From: a bacterium
Lineage (GTDB): Bacteria > Zixibacteria > MSB-5A5 > GN15 > FEB-12
DNA length: 64,000 bases
Direction: 5' to 3'
Assembly (NCBI GenBank): GCA_030612965.1
Contig: JAUWMW010000001.1
Location: 182 to 64,181, forward strand
Positions 9,611 to 29,214 of the stretch are shown here, one piece after another (the stretch's first letter is position 1; each line of letters starts with the position of its first letter). The position numbers and the translations under genes are program-made. The notes under the pieces were generated by a model. It was not told the DNA's origin and searched no databases. It was given only the letters and a program-made list of their open reading frames with translations.

Positions 9611-9870
9611 CTACTCTCGAATGGGCCGACTTCATTCGGCCAATGATTCTGGGCTTTGGCATCGCGGTGCTGGTCCAGTTCACAAAGGATCAGGTTCAGA
9701 AGGCAATCACAATCGCCACGACCGGATACACGATCGGCGTCTGCTTGGTCGTCGCGATCGTATGGGGTTTGATCGGCGGCTGGACATGGCCGGGAATCTT
9801 CTTCTCGGCGGCGCTATCCTTCGCCGGGACTCAAGTCTGGTATTTGTTCGGCCGGGGCGTCCTCAGGTAG
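9607..9870 (+). CDS. Small multi-pass membrane protein (lysis accessory?)
   Basis: 87 aa and almost entirely hydrophobic helices. ATGA overlap with the holin-like gene. Confidence 0.55.
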   Translation: MTTLEWADFIRPMILGFGIAVLVQFTKDQVQKAITIATTGYTIGVCLVVAIVWGLIGGWTWPGIFFSAALSFAGTQVWYLFGRGVLR

Positions 9871-9876
9871 CTGACT

Positions 9877-10149
9877 ATGCCGATCTTTAAGCCAAAGAAC
9901 AAGCCAATCCTGAGATGGAGCCGTATTCTGCATTTCCTCCTGGCCGCCACACTCACGGCCTATGGCGGACACCTCTGGAACTATTCCGGCTCTGTGTGGA
10001 CTGGAGCCGGGACAATCGCCGGCGGGCTGGCTTGGGAACTGTCCAACCGATTTGTCGGCAAGGGCTGGCATCCGTATGCGGACGCCCTCGACTTTTGGGC
10101 TTTTGTGGCCGGGGCTTTGATGGCCGGAGTCGGCTGGAATCTAATCTAA
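9877..10149 (+). CDS. Small membrane protein (lysis accessory?)
   Basis: 90 aa with 2-3 hydrophobic helices. Last gene before a strong terminator. Confidence 0.55.
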   Translation: MPIFKPKNKPILRWSRILHFLLAATLTAYGGHLWNYSGSVWTGAGTIAGGLAWELSNRFVGKGWHPYADALDFWAFVAGALMAGVGWNLI

Positions 10150-17793: not shown

Positions 17794-18789
17794 ATGACCG
17801 ACGACCTTGATATTAGAGTCAAGACTGGCTTTCTACGCCATCCGAAAACACAACGCCTTTGCCGAATCATCGGTGAGGACGCCCCACAGCGGCTCCTGCA
17901 GCTCTGGTGCTTCTGCCGGTTGAACCGGCCCGACGGCGTCCTCACCTACATGGACAACATCTCAATAGCGATCGCAGCCGACTACAGCGGCGATCCGGAT
18001 CAGTTCATCAATACTCTAGTCGATGAACGCTGGCTTGATTTGCACGATATGCACGGCACCTACCAAGTTCACGATTGGGAAGAGCATCAGGGTTGGTCGT
18101 CCGGTGCTGAACGTCGGAAGGCGGCCGCCCGCTACGCCGCCCTGGTCAAAAATCACAGCCAAACTTATGCGGACCGCGTTATGCCAGGCTGGCGTGAGCA
18201 CAAAATCACAACTCGACCTGCGCCCGCACCCCCAATTAAGCCTGCGGGCGCACAGAAAGGTACAACTCGACCTGCGCCCGCACCCCTATCTGTAACAAAG
18301 GGCAGTGCCCCGTCTCCTTCCCTTTCCGTCTCCTTTCCGTCTCCTAAATACAGAGAGGCGAGTTGTACTATGAAAAGCACAACTCAAGTTGAGGAGGAAA
18401 GGGCGAGTTGTGCTATGAAAACAACTTCCAACCACGACAAGAAAACACCACCGATGGCGGTTATCGTCGCTGTCATTGATGATCTGAATGAGGTCACTGG
18501 ACGGACAGACTCACAGCACAAGTTCAAAAGAGTGGGATCCACGATAAAGCTAATACGCGATCGAATGGTCATCGACGGCGCAACCGTGGACGATTTCAAA
18601 CATGTGCACCGAGTTCAGTGGGCAAAGTGGCAGGGCCGGAAGAGTTCCGATGGCGTGCCTATGACTGATTTTATGAGACCGAAGACACTCTATAATCCGA
18701 CGAACTTTGAGCAATACCGAGCAAGCTCGATGCCTCAGGATATTTCAAGTGGAGATCAGTATGGAGAATCTGGAAAAGTCGCTGTTTAA
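17794..18789 (+). CDS. Phage replication organiser / initiator-like protein (DnaD/O-like with conserved phage C-terminal domain)
   Basis: The C-terminal VIDDLNEVTGR...FKRVGSTIKLIRDRM...DDFKHVHRVQWAKW...MRPKTLYNPTNFEQY resembles the conserved phage C-terminus. Followed by a DnaC-like loader. Start taken at ATG 17794. Confidence 0.55.
   Translation: MTDDLDIRVKTGFLRHPKTQRLCRIIGEDAPQRLLQLWCFCRLNRPDGVLTYMDNISIAIAADYSGDPDQFINTLVDERWLDLHDMHGTYQVHDWEEHQGWSSGAERRKAAARYAALVKNHSQTYADRVMPGWREHKITTRPAPAPPIKPAGAQKGTTRPAPAPLSVTKGSAPSPSLSVSFPSPKYREASCTMKSTTQVEEERASCAMKTTSNHDKKTPPMAVIVAVIDDLNEVTGRTDSQHKFKRVGSTIKLIRDRMVIDGATVDDFKHVHRVQWAKWQGRKSSDGVPMTDFMRPKTLYNPTNFEQYRASSMPQDISSGDQYGESGKVAV
18208..18428. repeat. 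Iteron-like repeats inside the replication gene (candidate origin)
   Basis: ACAACTCGACCTGCGCCCGCACCC occurs twice (18208, 18262). GGCGAGTTGT-N-ACAACT(C/T) inverted-repeat units occur twice (18357-18385, 18402-18428). TCCTTTCCGTC occurs as a tandem pair (18317-18338). Confidence 0.6.
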
Positions 18790-19456
18790 TTACGCCGTCG
18801 GTCAGTTTGTGGCGAAGCGTCACCATCTGGTCACCTGGGAGAATGTGCCCTTGTTGGTACGCAAAGAAGCCCGGGCGGCAGGTGACAGCCTTTCCACGAA
18901 CAATCCTCACGGCCTCTTGATTTTGGGACCAGTAGGATCCGGTAAAACGTCTGTAATAGCTTTGATCGTAATCGATCATTTACGGCGGGTCATCAAAAGG
19001 GTGACATCCGAATCCTGGAAAGATTGGCAAGCGTTGAGTATCGATCCAGACTTTAGAATTTTAGAGTATACCTACCAACATCTCGGTTTGAGAATTACAT
19101 CAGTGACCCATAGCGAGCTGGTGCAGAAACTTCGCGCTCACTTCAAAGCCGAAGATCGAGGTGAGATTGTGCGGGGCTTCCCTGATGATTTAGAAAAGCG
19201 AATTGTCTTGATCGACGACCTTGGTGTAGCACACGATGACCGCTCCGGATGGAACCTATCGCTCCAGGAAGACTACTTTGACTGGCGATGGCGTGAGAAC
19301 CTTCCGACGTTCATCACAACCAACCGTGCCGCCAAGAGGGAGTCTCCTGACTACATTAGAAAATGGCCCGGTTGGGAGCGGATAGTTGATCGCATCTGTG
19401 ATCCGGAGTTTATGACAACGGTGGTGTTGAACCGTGAAAGCAGGAGGCGGGCATGA
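18761..19456 (+). CDS. DnaC/IstB-like AAA+ helicase loader
   Basis: Walker A LILGPVGSGKTS and Walker B IVLIDDLG, followed by TFITTN. ATG 18761 is preceded by GGAGA. Confidence 0.75.
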   Translation: MENLEKSLFNYAVGQFVAKRHHLVTWENVPLLVRKEARAAGDSLSTNNPHGLLILGPVGSGKTSVIALIVIDHLRRVIKRVTSESWKDWQALSIDPDFRILEYTYQHLGLRITSVTHSELVQKLRAHFKAEDRGEIVRGFPDDLEKRIVLIDDLGVAHDDRSGWNLSLQEDYFDWRWRENLPTFITTNRAAKRESPDYIRKWPGWERIVDRICDPEFMTTVVLNRESRRRA

Positions 19457-26439: not shown

Positions 26440-26468
26440 TTGACAAGGTTTGGCCAATTGCCGATATT
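26440..26468 (+). promoter_or_regulatory. Sigma70-like promoter (middle-gene cluster)
   Basis: TTGACA(AG) at 26440-26445, 17 nt, GATATT at 26463-26468 (TATTTA/TATAGT follow). Lies in a non-coding gap upstream of 26548. Confidence 0.55.
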
Positions 26469-26547
26469 TATAGTATGAAAACGACTGAAGGACATAGAGT
26501 TGAAACTTTAACCGGGGATTGCAAAGCCCCACAATCAGGAGAGAATC

Positions 26548-26865
26548 ATGAGACGGAAGAGAAAACTGATGGCGGCCCAAAAGGAGGCCGCTGCGGAACG
26601 GCGGGCCAAGGTCCGGCCAATGCTGAAGAGGATTGCTCGGGAGCCAGTTACGGACAATAGAAGCCGAGCCAAACGAGCAGAGGAAACGGTATTGAGTCAC
26701 GCCGATGAAGACTACTCAATCGACTACGCCATAACGGACCTATTGGTCGACCTCAGACATCTTTGTGATTTCAAAGGTCTGAGCTTTGTAGATCATGACC
26801 GGACTGCCCATGATCACTATACAGAAGAAGTTGTAGAGGAACGCCATGCCGGAGGTGCGGTGTGA
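26548..26865 (+). CDS. Hypothetical protein (basic N-terminus)
   Basis: 105 aa with AGGAGA upstream. Confidence 0.55.
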   Translation: MRRKRKLMAAQKEAAAERRAKVRPMLKRIAREPVTDNRSRAKRAEETVLSHADEDYSIDYAITDLLVDLRHLCDFKGLSFVDHDRTAHDHYTEEVVEERHAGGAV

Positions 26866-27683
26866 GTCCACTATGCAAAGCAACCACCGCCGATGGCAAG
26901 CCATGTATGACTCCGGCCCAGGCAGGTCGAAAGTTCTGTTACTGGCATCGGCGTGGAAGGTCGACGGCGCCCAAGCCGGCCAGGCGGACACGTAAACGAT
27001 CAGAGCCGAAGGCTATGCCGATGGTCACGATCGTGCAACGCCTGGACGAAAAGTGGCGGCCAGCCACGTTCAAGGATGTTGTCGGTCAGGAGTCGGCCAT
27101 CCGGAAGATTACGACCGTACTAAGCCGAGGCTGGGGTGCCCGGGCCTTTTGGTTATCCGGTGACTCCGGGACCGGCAAGACCACCTTGGCTCACATTATT
27201 GCCAAGTCTGGAGCAACGGATGCCGATATCGGTGACCACTTCGGGCGGATCACGGAAGTGGTCGGACGTGAGATGTCACCAGCTGGCCTGACGGCCATTA
27301 TGCACGACTGGATGTTTGCCGGAGGCCACGCCTTGATCGTGAATGAGGCTCACGGACTCAACAAGGTAATGATCGAAATCTTTCTGAACGTCCTAGAACA
27401 ACTAAGGCCGAACGTAGTGGTGATCTTCACGACTACGAATGAAGGCGAGGACTTGTTCAATGGACAGGCGGACGCAGCGCCGTTCGCTTCCAGGTGTCTA
27501 TGCCTGAACCTGAAGTCGGACGGCTTGACGATTCCGTTTGCCCGACGTGCCAAGTTCATTGCTCGCAAAGAGAACCTCGACGGTAGGCCGATCACGGCTT
27601 ACCGGAAATTGATGAAACGACATAACAACAACCTACGCGCCGCGCTCTCGGAGATCGAGGCCGGTGCGATGCTGGAGGATTGA
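26862..27683 (+). CDS. AAA+ ATPase, clamp-loader (DnaX/RFC)-like, with N-terminal Cys/His cluster
   Basis: WRPATFKDVVGQ...LSGDSGTGKTTLA (Walker A), LIVNEAHGL (Walker B/DExx-like) and VVIFTTT (sensor 1). N-terminal C-x10-C-x10-C-x2-H cluster. Confidence 0.75.
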   Translation: MSPLCKATTADGKPCMTPAQAGRKFCYWHRRGRSTAPKPARRTRKRSEPKAMPMVTIVQRLDEKWRPATFKDVVGQESAIRKITTVLSRGWGARAFWLSGDSGTGKTTLAHIIAKSGATDADIGDHFGRITEVVGREMSPAGLTAIMHDWMFAGGHALIVNEAHGLNKVMIEIFLNVLEQLRPNVVVIFTTTNEGEDLFNGQADAAPFASRCLCLNLKSDGLTIPFARRAKFIARKENLDGRPITAYRKLMKRHNNNLRAALSEIEAGAMLED

Positions 27684-27761
27684 ACAATCGAACGGCATGG
27701 CATAAAGGTATATCCATCAACTGAGTGCTGCACTGAATGCCAAGGGAAATGTTGTAAGGAT

Positions 27762-28154
27762 ATGCCGGGAACATACCACCCAAAAGATATCAAAGGGCCA
27801 AAGCGCAAGGCTATTGCCAAGATGCTCAGAGAAGGACGGGCCGCAATTGATTGGTATGATGGATCTTCAAATATCTACTATCTGCGGCCGGTCGCTGGTG
27901 ATTCTAATCTCATTTTTGATCCGTCCTGGGGTGGCCGCTGTCAACATTTAACGTCTGAGGGTTGTGCCTTACGACCGAATGAGCGTCCTCTCGGTTGCCG
28001 AACCGTAGAGGTAAGGGCTAATCGTAGCTGTTACAATCACTCAGACAAAAAGCAGTGCGCCCATTGGTGGGCCGATTATCAAGATATGTTGATCGAAGTA
28101 GGAAAAGAAGTAGAACGCCAAAAAGGACACAATACCAGAGGATTGAAACGATGA
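27762..28154 (+). CDS. YkgJ-family Cys-rich (zinc/iron-chelating CxxCxxxCC) protein; true start unresolved
   Basis: CALRPNERPLGCR is the C-terminal family motif. The N-terminal signature CCTECQGKCC (27726-27755) lies upstream of the first ATG, in frame with and 42 nt after the upstream gene's TGA. Confidence 0.6.
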   Translation: MPGTYHPKDIKGPKRKAIAKMLREGRAAIDWYDGSSNIYYLRPVAGDSNLIFDPSWGGRCQHLTSEGCALRPNERPLGCRTVEVRANRSCYNHSDKKQCAHWWADYQDMLIEVGKEVERQKGHNTRGLKR

Positions 28155-28404: not shown

Positions 28405-29214
28405 ATGATTTCACGAGAACGCATGGACTTCGGGAAGTTCTGGCAAGAAGGGCTTACTCTTATTGAAGGGTGCACGCCTACCTCTCCCGGCTGTCTGCAT
28501 TGTTGGGGACAAGCACAGACTCACCTCCGGGCACAACAGAGGGGCAACCCGAAGGTCATCGCCCGATATGAGGGATTGACCAATAGTCACGGGAAGTTCA
28601 ACGGTAAGATCCGGATCATGGAAAGCGCCCTGGATCGTCCGGTGCGTAAGCGGAAAGGTATCGTATACGCCATCTGGAACGACCTGTTCCATGAGGATGT
28701 GCCCACGGAGTTCATCAAGCGGACGTGGACCATGATGACAGCCAATCAAAAACACATCTTTATCGTGACCACAAAACGTCCACAGCGTGCGGTTGAGTTT
28801 GCACGACGACATCAATTGCCACACCTGCCGAATCTGTGGTTTCTGGGAACGACCGAAGACCAGGCACGATGGGAGGAACGCTATAGATGGATTCAGAAGT
28901 TCTCGGCGGCTCAGGTCCGGGGTGCCATTATTGAACCGATCCTTGGTGACGTTCGATTAACGGGAGTCGACCCGGCTCTCATGAGTTGGATCATCGTAGG
29001 TGTCGAAACCGGTCAACGGCGCAGACGTATCGACATGAGGCACGTCTGGAACGTGGCGAGGCAAACTCAGGAAATGTCCATGTTATTATGGGTCAAGACT
29101 ATCGACAACGAAGGAACCTTGATCCATGACATTAGCCGGATGCCTTCCGGTTTACAGGTCCATAACCTGCCGGCCATGGACGCCCAACATCAAACTGACC
29201 TTGGACTGTTTTAG
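28405..29214 (+). CDS. Phage Gp37/Gp68 family protein (DUF5131)
   Basis: The N-terminal LIEGCTPTSPGCLHCWG matches the family signature (W.p..GC...S.GC..CY). 269 aa. Confidence 0.75.
   Translation: MISRERMDFGKFWQEGLTLIEGCTPTSPGCLHCWGQAQTHLRAQQRGNPKVIARYEGLTNSHGKFNGKIRIMESALDRPVRKRKGIVYAIWNDLFHEDVPTEFIKRTWTMMTANQKHIFIVTTKRPQRAVEFARRHQLPHLPNLWFLGTTEDQARWEERYRWIQKFSAAQVRGAIIEPILGDVRLTGVDPALMSWIIVGVETGQRRRRIDMRHVWNVARQTQEMSMLLWVKTIDNEGTLIHDISRMPSGLQVHNLPAMDAQHQTDLGLF

Follow-up and report, generated by a model that had tools for sequence, protein, structure and literature searches.

[quoted passage not shown] From comparison with related loci, the ATC appears to be an ordinary start-codon substitution, and neither a site of stop-codon read-through nor the mark of a split fusion. 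The most likely gene model is 27687-28154, coding for 155 aa. The features on which this account is built are the following.

26440..26468, forward strand: candidate sigma-70-like promoter TTGACA-N17-GATATT, with 10 of 12 consensus matches
26862..27683, forward strand: gene of an AAA+ clamp-loader-like / RarA-like ATPase, recognized by PHROG and Pfam profile matches
27641..27728, forward strand: mosaic segment diverged from locus L001, running from the 3' end of the AAA+ gene across the initiation region to codon 14 of the Cys-rich gene
27674..27679, forward strand: GGAGGA, the SD of the Cys-rich gene, lying within the last AAA+ codons (GAG GAT)
27681..27683, forward strand: TGA, the native stop of the AAA+ gene, at the position where the AAA+ family ends
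27687..27689, forward strand: ATC at the homologous start position, aligned with the ATG or GTG of relatives; proposed near-cognate initiation codon
27687..28154, forward strand: gene of the Cys-rich protein (155 codons and a stop), a divergent member of PF03692 (CxxCxxCC / YkgJ-type) with homologs co-linear from codon 1
27729..27755, forward strand: Cx2Cx3CC motif, first half of an eight-Cys signature (C15, C18, C22 and C23, with the ATC as 1)
27762..27764, forward strand: codon of an internal Met (M26, within CCKxMPG in the family alignment), and the first canonical start
28138..28154, forward strand: downstream junction GAGGATTGAAACGATGA, with the SD and ATG 28151 of the next gene (79 aa)

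The arrangement described in the sequence-only reading was upheld when its coordinates were rechecked. The AAA+ ORF, 26862..27683, ends in ...GAG GAT TGA, so that its stop is TGA 27681-27683; the same frame stays open past this codon and through the Cys motif, correctly placed at 27726-27755, and the first ATG, GTG or TTG that it contains is ATG 27762. The in-frame stretch from the ACA that follows the TGA up to this ATG is ACA ATC GAA CGG CAT GGC ATA AAG GTA TAT CCA TCA ACT GAG TGC TGC ACT GAA TGC CAA GGG AAA TGT TGT AAG GAT ATG and translates as TIERHGIKVYPSTECCTECQGKCCKDM. A codon-by-codon scan between the TGA and ATG 27762 found zero ATG, GTG or TTG codons, and also zero CTG, the only near-cognates being ATC 27687 and ATA 27702. 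Over 26 codons, the absence of a canonical start has a chance probability of (61/64)^26, about 0.29, and is not statistically unusual alone. Its significance comes from homology, because the motif cysteines are invariant in an alignment of 84 family sequences and a canonical start (ATG or GTG) is found 7-23 codons before the motif in all 20 non-window loci examined. Only the window and its duplicate in the Logan assemblies (L007) have no canonical start before the motif.

Public annotation is wrong at this locus. The NCBI record (64,242 bp) annotates a 130-aa product from ATG 27762 (P0125), which lacks the four invariant Cys of the motif, and the Cys-rich gene is wholly absent from the Logan gene calls; the window's 273-aa AAA+ product is likewise a member of the NCBI protein collection. 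Both the short product and the missing gene are artefacts, since gene callers accept only ATG, GTG or TTG. Downstream, the ATG 28151 of the 79-aa gene overlaps the stop of the Cys-rich gene (TGA 28152-28154). Upstream, the candidate promoter would head a unit consisting of a 105-aa ORF, the AAA+ gene and the Cys-rich gene; the element is also present in L001, immediately 5' of an AAA+ relic, and a similar one is found in L005.

The initiation region can be followed base by base in related loci. ATC 27687 is aligned with an ATG in L001, L002, L003 and L025 and with a GTG in L004, the correspondence being exact in the four closest lineages, and the GGAGGA is retained in L001-L004, L006 and L025. 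The junctions read GGAGGA-TTGAAACG-ATG in L001-L003, with an 8-nt spacer, GGAGGA-TTGAAGA-ATG in L025, GGAGGA-TTGACAA-GTG in L004 and GGAGGA-TTGAACA-ATC in the window, where the 28-mer with the ATC start is GGAGGATTGAACAATCGAACGGCATGGC. The closest junction, that of L025, is GGAGGATTGAAGAATGAAA and its window counterpart is GGAGGATTGAACAATCGAA; at the start codon itself the two differ only by G to C. The ATC is located 7 nt past GGAGGA and 3 nt past the AAA+ stop, and the SD/anti-SD duplex at this codon, with 7-nt spacing, amounts to -9.3 kcal/mol, a strength seen for 8 of the 42 window genes (the top fifth) and at 2.5% of background positions. The codon therefore combines the start position of the orthologs with an SD at functional spacing, as looked for in a near-cognate start. 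The ATC start is not conserved, being seen in the window haplotype only, with ATG or GTG in 20 of the 20 other loci.

Other ways of starting upstream of the motif were considered and rejected. ATA 27702 has no SD (-2.7 kcal/mol). As for out-of-frame starts that would need a frameshift, TTG 27680 directly adjoins the SD and begins an ORF of 14 codons, and the frame of ATG 27697 runs through GCA into TAA. No significant local RNA structure was predicted near the SD and the ATC, with a z of -1.55 and equally good folding of 10 of 200 shuffled sequences. A degenerate junction pattern that matches the window and L001-L004 gave no match in the IMG/VR and JGI metagenome contigs, collections evidently without these contigs, and no second independent sample with the ATC haplotype was found in these scans.

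The protein family points to the same start. Five homologs of 146-156 aa (P0001-P0004 and P0126) are co-linear with the window protein from codon 27687, with N-termini such as MKRHGIK.., MRTHKHGE.. and MGKDQ.. against I-ERHGIK in the window. In the 84-sequence alignment the invariant Cys codons of the motif are TGC 27729, TGC 27738, TGT 27750 and TGT 27753; the Cys at 27726 is specific to the window genome, and close relatives have Arg there. The Cx2Cx3CC pattern is present in 82 of the 84 sequences, and in the second Cys group C93 and C115 are invariant and C85 and C104 at least 90% conserved, with G92, R100 and P101 also conserved in a G-C...R-P-x-x-C element; all eight conserved Cys are kept in the window protein. 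The first Cys is a median of 11 residues from the N-terminus (range 5-41) in the 84 sequences, and 14 with the ATC start. A profile search returned 1,507 relatives, the best 150 of which all match from profile position 18 or earlier. The sequence-only reading had held that homologs starting at the equivalent of M27762 and lacking the motif would count against it; the homologs start upstream of the motif. The column of M26 contains M 34, L 26, I 10 and Y 8, which suggests a conserved hydrophobic position within CCKxMPG and not a start. An AF2 model built from the 84-sequence alignment has a mean pLDDT of 90.3, with 92, 85 and 90 in the blocks of residues 1-30, and these residues are thus predicted as a confident part of the fold; with only 5 sequences in the alignment, the model reached a pLDDT of 49.8 and could not be used. 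No solved structure was found to resemble the AF2 model.

Assignment to the YkgJ family, proposed in the sequence-only reading, holds by transitive homology, as 45 of the 84 homologs match PF03692 at E<=0.1 (best E 8e-9), but not by direct scoring, as the window protein itself, whether 155 or 130 aa, has no Pfam match, PF03692 included, at E<=1 or E<=10. Among ten members scanned individually, four exceed the curated PF03692 gathering cut-off of 23 bits (P0136, 23.3; P0139, 25.8; P0141, 23.3; P0148, 32.0 bits). In the relatives, position 2 of the PF03692 profile falls on the first Cys of the motif, and both its N-terminal cluster C-x2-C-x2/3-C-C and a second Cys group are present in the window protein. 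PHROG and NCBIfam gave no meaningful match for this protein, NCBIfam having no applicable model. In this analysis the clade was seen in phage and metagenome contigs only, including IMG/VR loci located with the 5-sequence alignment; no relatives were found in GTDB species genomes by pattern scan, and there was no match among INPHARED phages.

The upstream gene bears directly on the question of a fusion. Its product is 273 aa long if translation starts at GTG 26862 and 222 aa if it starts at ATG 27015, the start chosen in the Logan gene call. It matches PHROG 5846 'clamp loader' (2e-21) and PHROG 168 'clamp loader of DNA polymerase' (6e-17); the Pfam matches RuvB_N (28.9 bits, cut-off 27) and AAA (24.7 bits, cut-off 21.2) identify a P-loop module, and a Walker A motif, GDSGTGKTT, is visible. 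The C-terminus, ...NNLRAALSEIEAGAMLED, fits the family end (...EIEAGAML-ED), and 11 aligned homologs share an ...EIEAGAML(x0-2) end, except for P0011 (...EIESGRML plus 6). Nearly all of the best 120 of 725 AAA+ homologs are stand-alone proteins of about 200-250 aa, the longest having 292. Read-through of UGA 27681 to give a functional AAA+-Cys-rich fusion, or a fusion recently split by a nonsense mutation, had both been offered in the sequence-only reading, and both are now rejected as highly improbable. In favour of such readings, the window, L004 and L025 have the TGA in the frame of the downstream ORF, separated from its start by one codon, and with a weakened start the basal leakiness of UGA could match the level of AUC initiation. 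Against this, the AAA+ protein ends at the conserved C-terminus of its family, the longest of its best 120 homologs is too short for a fusion, and no AAA+/Cys-rich fusion is found either among these or among the best 150 of 1,507 Cys-rich matches, which are mostly stand-alone with N-termini of their own. The AAA+ gene is absent within 3 kb in 14 of 14 IMG/VR loci, and no examined locus has both in one ORF; in L001 and L025, where the neighbouring AAA+ gene has been lost, the Cys-rich gene functions from the same leader without an AAA+ ORF 5' of it. The frame relationship is itself unconserved, because in L001-L003 the relic TGA is shifted by +1 relative to the frame of the ATG, and the relatives have their own SD and ATG or GTG. 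A genome-wide reassignment of TGA, as in phages of the code 4 or code 25 type, would make TGA 27681 a sense codon, and its probability is practically negligible: nothing but the in-frame TGA itself speaks for it, whereas TGA is the commonest stop in the window, closing 39 of 74 long ORFs, the standard code leaves reading frames of as many as 2,121 aa open, and the AAA+ protein has its family-typical end here.

The start codon lies within a diverged segment. Relative to L001, 14 of 88 nt differ in 27641-27728 against 6 of 426 nt in 27729-28154 (Fisher p ~1e-7); within the gene, 5 of codons 1-14 carry non-synonymous differences, and from codon 15 onward there are 5 synonymous differences and 1 non-synonymous. 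Within the family, codons 1-14 vary naturally, and the divergence also reaches the 3' end of the AAA+ gene, in keeping with a mosaic boundary. The 17-mer of 28138..28154 recurs unchanged in L001-L003, where it forms the junction at which the Cys-rich gene starts, and in L001 the gene is flanked by an exact 17-nt repeat.

Three further explanations leave the AAA+ stop as it is and concern the start codon. A true start at ATG 27762, with a 130-aa protein functional without the N-terminal Cys cluster, is hardly credible. This codon is the first canonical start, is the one used in the existing public annotation and has AAGGA just upstream; yet this sole SD-like element abuts the codon (spacing 0, -5.9 kcal/mol), the shorter protein loses four of the eight conserved Cys, these four being invariant, the beginning of the PF03692 domain and an N-terminal segment that the AF2 model predicts to be confidently folded, the Met column within CCKxMPG is a conserved hydrophobic one (M/L/I/Y), and no relative's match among the best 150 of 1,507 begins there. 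It is very unlikely that the ATC is an error of sequencing or assembly, or represents a minority variant, in a phage population that really carries ATG at 27687-27689. The haplotype is known from one lineage and a single sequencing run, SRR12623518, together with an NCBI record possibly from the same sample, and every other relative examined has ATG or GTG. However, the Logan assembly of this run agrees with the window base for base over 641 nt, which makes an assembler-specific error unlikely, the NCBI record has the same 130-aa product, and consensus substitution errors are rare in short-read assemblies; moreover, the ATC is no lone discrepancy, since between its segment and the nearest relative there are 14 differences in 88 nt, four of them within 9 nt, as expected of a distinct haplotype. 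More weight, although still with no better than a modest chance, may be given to the view that the loss of the start codon effectively silenced the gene, the ATG-to-ATC change being recent and inactivating or strongly hypomorphic, and the gene, its ORF still intact, either a recently formed pseudogene or an accessory gene that can be dispensed with and is being lost. An AUC start yields about 0.02-3% of AUG expression, the variant is seen in one lineage only, the region is highly mosaic and evidently dispensable (AAA+ lost in L001 and L025; 17-nt repeat in L001), and the concentration of non-synonymous changes in codons 1-14 could reflect relaxed constraint after start loss. On the other hand, the ORF is intact over 155 codons with its eight conserved Cys, synonymous differences prevail over non-synonymous from codon 15 onward (5 against 1), and the SD and its spacing are preserved; low expression is also not zero, and a putative metal-cluster protein or enzyme may suffice in small amounts.

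Among the options listed in the sequence-only reading, rare non-canonical initiation is thus the one favoured, with ATC 27687 sitting at the ATG or GTG of relatives behind a conserved GGAGGA, whereas read-through and a split fusion were rejected and a sequencing error is unlikely. The initiation region is common to the clade and comprises GGAGGA in the last AAA+ codons, a spacer of 7-8 nt with the AAA+ stop inside it, and the start codon; under initiation at AUC 27687, this codon would have changed in the window from ATG to the near-cognate ATC, which leaves no ATG, GTG or TTG before the essential Cys motif. ATC is a permitted initiator in translation table 11, and IF3 discriminates against AUC starts. 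Translation would begin at AUC 27687 with initiator tRNA, so that the N-terminal residue would be Met, probably at a rate of a few percent or less of that of an AUG start. The strong, well-spaced SD would support this initiation, and ribosomes terminating at the AAA+ UGA 3 nt upstream may help through translational coupling or reinitiation; the in-frame relation of the TGA to the downstream ORF would be an accident of spacer length. In E. coli, initiation at AUC has been reported at about 1-2% of AUG, and at 0.02-3% in other constructs, and an AUC-initiated protein was shown by mass spectrometry to carry an N-terminal Met (Hecht et al., bioRxiv 10.1101/063800). These rates may not transfer to the phage host. 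Coupling may also fail to rescue a near-cognate start, since overexpression of IF3 lowered reinitiation in a coupled reporter (PMC2268962). It is doubtful, though conceivable, that the AUC start is a selected feature by which nearly all of the Cys-rich protein comes from ribosomes fresh from termination on the AAA+ ORF, because such a start would be almost silent for free 30S subunits. If so, the AAA+ gene, newly (re)acquired, would set the synthesis of the Cys-rich protein at a low and fixed ratio to its own, and the locus would be a natural phage case of coupling-dependent near-cognate initiation.

The main value of these results is the correction of the annotation at the Cys-rich gene locus, where a single-base change of the start codon is enough for gene callers limited to ATG, GTG and TTG to truncate or drop a gene. 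No new mechanism is revealed, and a read-through fusion, recoding and a split gene are removed as readings; what is left is turnover of the start codon between ATG, GTG and ATC at one homologous position, at the boundary of a mosaic module, in a locus on which AUC initiation and translational coupling could be tested in a natural setting.

Programmed stop-codon read-through is known in phages from the Q-beta coat/A1 type, and like that system the window has an in-frame UGA between two coding segments; unlike it, what follows the UGA is a gene in its own right, which in all relatives has an SD and a start, and no fusion homologs were found among the best 120 AAA+ and the best 150 Cys-rich matches. 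PF03692, the family of E. coli YkgJ, is the CxxCxxCC 'putative zinc- or iron-chelating domain', and the window protein shares with it an N-terminal C-x2-C-x3-CC and a second four-Cys set (G-C-x-L...R-P-x-x-C), but departs from the family name in its Cys spacing of x3, not x2, and has no PF03692 score of its own. A functional lead only is offered by DpdM, a phage-encoded YkgJ homolog of the DUF3109 family that has been proposed to act as a preQ1 methyltransferase in 7-deazaguanine DNA modification (bioRxiv 10.1101/2023.04.13.536721): both are small Cys-cluster proteins related to YkgJ and encoded by phages, but DpdM belongs to another Pfam family, DUF3109 gave no match here, and an unsystematic look at the surroundings of the locus showed no genes of a 7-deazaguanine pathway. 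With regard to coupling, galT/galK and rplK/rplA are classic coupled pairs with a +3 nt stop-start spacing (PMC12548453). The window has the same +3 nt spacing, an SD inside the upstream ORF and an apparently shared transcription unit; unlike in these pairs, coupling is read here from geometry only, and it is not required by the Cys-rich family, since in L001 and L025 the leader works without the upstream AAA+ ORF. The AUU start of infC is conserved and autoregulatory, unlike the ATC of the window, which occurs in one lineage whose relatives all have ATG or GTG. What the window ATC does share with the near-cognate starts of bacteria (AUU, AUC, AUA and CUG) is that it differs from AUG by one base, occupies the start position and is preceded by a good SD.

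The AAA+ clamp-loader-like ORF (26862..27683, + strand) closes with GAG GAT TGA, the TGA lying at 27681-27683, and its frame stays open beyond the stop, reading TIERHGIKVYPSTECCTECQGKCCKDM, with the first in-frame ATG, GTG or TTG at ATG 27762; a codon-by-codon scan found ATC 27687 and ATA 27702 to be the sole near-cognates in between. In all this a second reading of the sequence agrees with the sequence-only reading. A run of 26 codons lacking a canonical start has by our own arithmetic a chance of ~0.29, (61/64)^26, and is not rare; it is a real anomaly only because of what it encodes, the Cys motif of the next, YkgJ/PF03692-like gene (27687-28154, + strand, 155 codons).

Judged by sequence comparison, the decisive evidence on this gene is where its relatives start. 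In protein alignments the initiator Met of three homologs (P0001, P0002 and P0126) aligns exactly with the Ile of ATC 27687, and the starts of P0003 and P0004 fall at most two residues from it. At the DNA level, the window and related loci on other contigs compare as follows.

Shine-Dalgarno (SD) sequence, spacer and start at the junction
Window: SD GGAGGA, spacer TTGAACA, then ATC GAA CGG
L001-L003: SD GGAGGA, spacer TTGAAACG, start ATG AAA CGG
L025 (JGI): SD GGAGGA, spacer TTGAAGA, start ATG AAA CGG
L004: SD GGAGGA, spacer TTGACAA, start GTG AAA AGG
L006: SD GGAGGA, spacer TAGG, start ATG

A scripted survey of every fetched locus, including 14 IMG/VR loci found via the family alignment, located an ATG or GTG 7-23 codons 5' of the motif in 20/20 non-window loci, a canonical start before the motif being absent only from the window and its Logan assembly duplicate. 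Homologs, which it had been proposed to consult for the start site, thus start upstream of the motif, itself present as Cx2Cx3CC in 82/84 aligned sequences, and the alignments show the homologous start of the Cys-rich gene to be codon 27687, ATC in the window. This codon has a strong SD at the right distance (-9.3 kcal/mol, 7-nt spacing); only 8/42 well-supported window genes, and 2.5% of positions in the background, have one as strong. Before ATG 27762 nothing is SD-like except an AAGGA directly abutting the codon, and an SD duplex scan saw no SD at ATA 27702. The locus is an accessory phage gene, from a divergent clade of PF03692, whose start codon has been substituted from ATG to ATC.

Searched alone, the window Cys-rich protein has no match in Pfam, PHROG or NCBIfam. 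A word-indexed homology search returned four relatives, P0001 (96% identity), P0002 (68%), P0003 (61%) and P0004 (39%), 146-156 aa long and all with the Cys motif. A profile built from these, searched against 1.84 billion representatives, gave 1,507 relatives at E<=1e-3 (1,053 at E<=1e-10); the best 150 of the 1,507 are mostly stand-alone proteins of 140-200 aa, and in 150/150 of these the match starts no later than profile position 18, at or before the motif. When residues are numbered from ATC 27687 as 1, C15, C18, C22, C23, R67, C93, P101 and C115 are invariant in the 84-sequence alignment, conservation is at least 90% at C85 and C104, the first Cys follows the N-terminus by 5-41 residues (median 11), and the M27762 column is a conserved hydrophobic position within CCKxMPG (M 34, L 26, I 10, Y 8). 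An extra, window-specific Cys (TGC 27726-27728, residue 14; CGC, Arg, in close relatives) lies directly 5' of the conserved motif. PF03692 (CxxCxxCC, YkgJ family) is matched individually by 45/84 sequences (best E 8e-9), and 4/10 members scanned individually exceed its 23-bit gathering cut-off, the matches in scanned relatives always beginning at profile position 2, the first Cys. The YkgJ family call made earlier therefore holds by transitive homology, while the window protein itself stays below the formal threshold. An AlphaFold2 model from the 84-sequence alignment (mean pLDDT 90.3, pTM 0.84) predicts the fold confidently, with residues 1-30 as part of it (block mean pLDDT 92, 85, 90). No solved structure resembling this model was found, and the sole resembling entry in BFVD is one uncharacterised phage protein. 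A literature lead to function may be DpdM, a phage YkgJ homolog (related DUF3109 family) proposed to be a preQ1 methyltransferase (bioRxiv 10.1101/2023.04.13.536721).

L001, a mosaic phage syntenic with the window and its closest relative, has no counterpart of window 26510-27640 (1,131 nt, comprising a 105-aa ORF at 26548-26865 and most of the AAA+ gene); there (9813-9954) a promoter-like element runs straight into the final 43 nt of the AAA+ gene, kept as a leader. A similar ~35-nt AAA+ 3' relic stands in L025 (520-590) behind a different, unrelated 52-aa ORF. Both relics carry the SD, so the 3' end of AAA+ also serves the Cys-rich gene as its initiation region, and it is retained as leader and SD of that gene after AAA+ loss. 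In L001-L003 the Cys-rich gene stands between two identical 17-nt direct repeats, GAGGATTGAAACGATGA (SD, spacer, ATG and A); in the window the downstream copy alone is intact, the upstream equivalent having diverged to GAGGATTGA-ACAATCGA, which contains the ATC.

Copies of the 17-nt repeat
L001 9988-10004
L001 10452-10468
Window 28138-28154, downstream copy

The repeat may link modules through recombination or gene conversion. Identity between the window and L001 runs by block from 69% to 96%, which indicates extensive module shuffling. A DUF5131 gene lies directly 3' of the block in the window (28405-29214); in L001 (2936-3739) it is found ~7 kb 5' of the Cys-rich gene. A promoter-like CTTGACA-N17-GATATT followed by TATAGT stands upstream of the gene block (window 26440-26475), is conserved in L001 (~9880-9920) and has a similar counterpart in L005 (17-50; CTTGACAGG...TTGCCGATATT), which points to a promoter shared among these phages and to a bacterial host of the sigma-70 type.

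For the AAA+ gene, the product is annotated as 273 aa by NCBI and 222 aa by Logan. GTG 26862 overlaps the stop of the upstream ORF as GTGA and is preceded by a strong SD (-10.8 kcal/mol, spacing 4), the SD of ATG 27015 is weak, and most homologs begin at the MRLDEKYRP position. The 51 codons 5' of the AAA+ core (26862-27014; MSPLCKATTADGKPCMTPAQAGRKFCYWHRRG...) give a weak DUF5763 match (E 2e-4, below cut-off) and may be a lineage-specific Cys/His extension. In NCBI, two close homologs, P0023 and P0031 (50-55% identity), are named as proteins from MAGs of Candidatus Hodarchaeota and Thorarchaeota (Asgard archaea); viral contigs may have been binned with these MAGs, or the names may hint at which hosts related viruses infect. 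In several JGI entries the family is called 'replication-associated recombination protein RarA'.

Two of the explanations first offered, TGA read-through into an AAA+-YkgJ fusion and a recent nonsense mutation splitting a fusion gene, are rejected. The AAA+ family has 725 matches at E<=1e-5, of which the best 120 are nearly all stand-alone (~200-250 aa); none of these 120 is a fusion, since the longest, at 292 aa, is too short to include the 155-aa domain. Homolog C-termini share the ending ...NNLRxALxEIEAGAML followed by 0-2 residues, P0011 (...EIESGRML plus 6) being the single exception, and by this alignment ...LSEIEAGAMLED-TGA is the native AAA+ end. In L001-L003 the spacer is 1 nt longer, shifting the relic TGA to +1 relative to the frame of the ATG, so the frame relation between TGA and Cys-rich ORF is not conserved. 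None of the surveyed loci holds both proteins in one ORF: they are separate throughout, as the suggested fused-or-separate comparison was meant to settle, and no AAA+ gene lies within 3 kb of the Cys-rich gene in 14/14 IMG/VR loci. Genome-wide TGA recoding is excluded, TGA being the commonest stop in the window (39/74 long ORFs) and a 2,121-aa ORF being open under the standard code. A sequencing or assembly error at the ATC leaves a small residual doubt, as no second independent sample with this haplotype was found in IMG/VR, JGI metagenome contigs or INPHARED. Against it, the Logan assembly of SRR12623518 (64,131-bp contig) is the same as the window, ATC included, over the 641 nt compared, and products of an NCBI record of 64,242 bp match the window's 130-aa and 273-aa products exactly. 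Window and L001 show 14 differences in 27641-27728 (16%) and 6 in 27729-28154 (1.4%; Fisher p ~1e-7), and L025, the nearest junction, differs by three substitutions inside 8 nt; with these many accompanying differences, the start codon falls inside a mosaic stretch that has truly diverged.

We infer that translation would still begin at ATC 27687. In the main competing reading the ATG to ATC change has in effect silenced the gene, and what remains is a recent pseudogene with its ORF still intact. AUC is among four near-cognates initiating in E. coli at ~1-2% of AUG, and at 0.02-3% in other constructs, and an AUC construct carried N-terminal Met by mass spectrometry (bioRxiv 10.1101/063800). 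The AAA+ stop is 3 nt from the ATC, the same +3 spacing as in galT/galK and rplK/rplA, classic translationally coupled pairs (PMC12548453), so that AAA+-terminating ribosomes would be delivered to the ATC site, and coupling might compensate for the near-cognate codon. In a coupled reporter, IF3 overexpression lowered reinitiation (PMC2268962). A predicted local RNA hairpin pairing part of the SD and the ATC was not significant. From codon 15 onward the window and L001 differ by 5 synonymous and 1 non-synonymous changes; codons 1-14, the naturally variable N-terminus of the family, carry 5 non-synonymous changes, and the divergence of this segment reaches into the AAA+ 3' end. Very low expression and none cannot be told apart on sequence data.

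Because of the ATC start, annotation in the NCBI record is limited to the 130-aa ORF that begins at ATG 27762, and the Logan gene caller leaves the whole gene uncalled, a 467-nt gap (window 27684-28150; L007 3670-4136). What the case offers is a gene model put right, 27687-28154, and a neat illustration of how start codons (ATG / GTG / ATC) replace one another where modules meet. Elsewhere, in a rough list of ORFs of at least 80 aa with canonical starts, ~660 nt without a long ORF (18790-19452) separate a gene end at 18789 from a gene start at 19453, and could hold small genes, RNA or another non-canonical-start gene. Set beside known systems, the window locus fails every test for programmed read-through, and it lacks the hallmark of infC-type regulatory non-AUG starts because the ATC codon is not conserved; it is another instance of near-cognate initiation or of start-codon loss, both of which are known.
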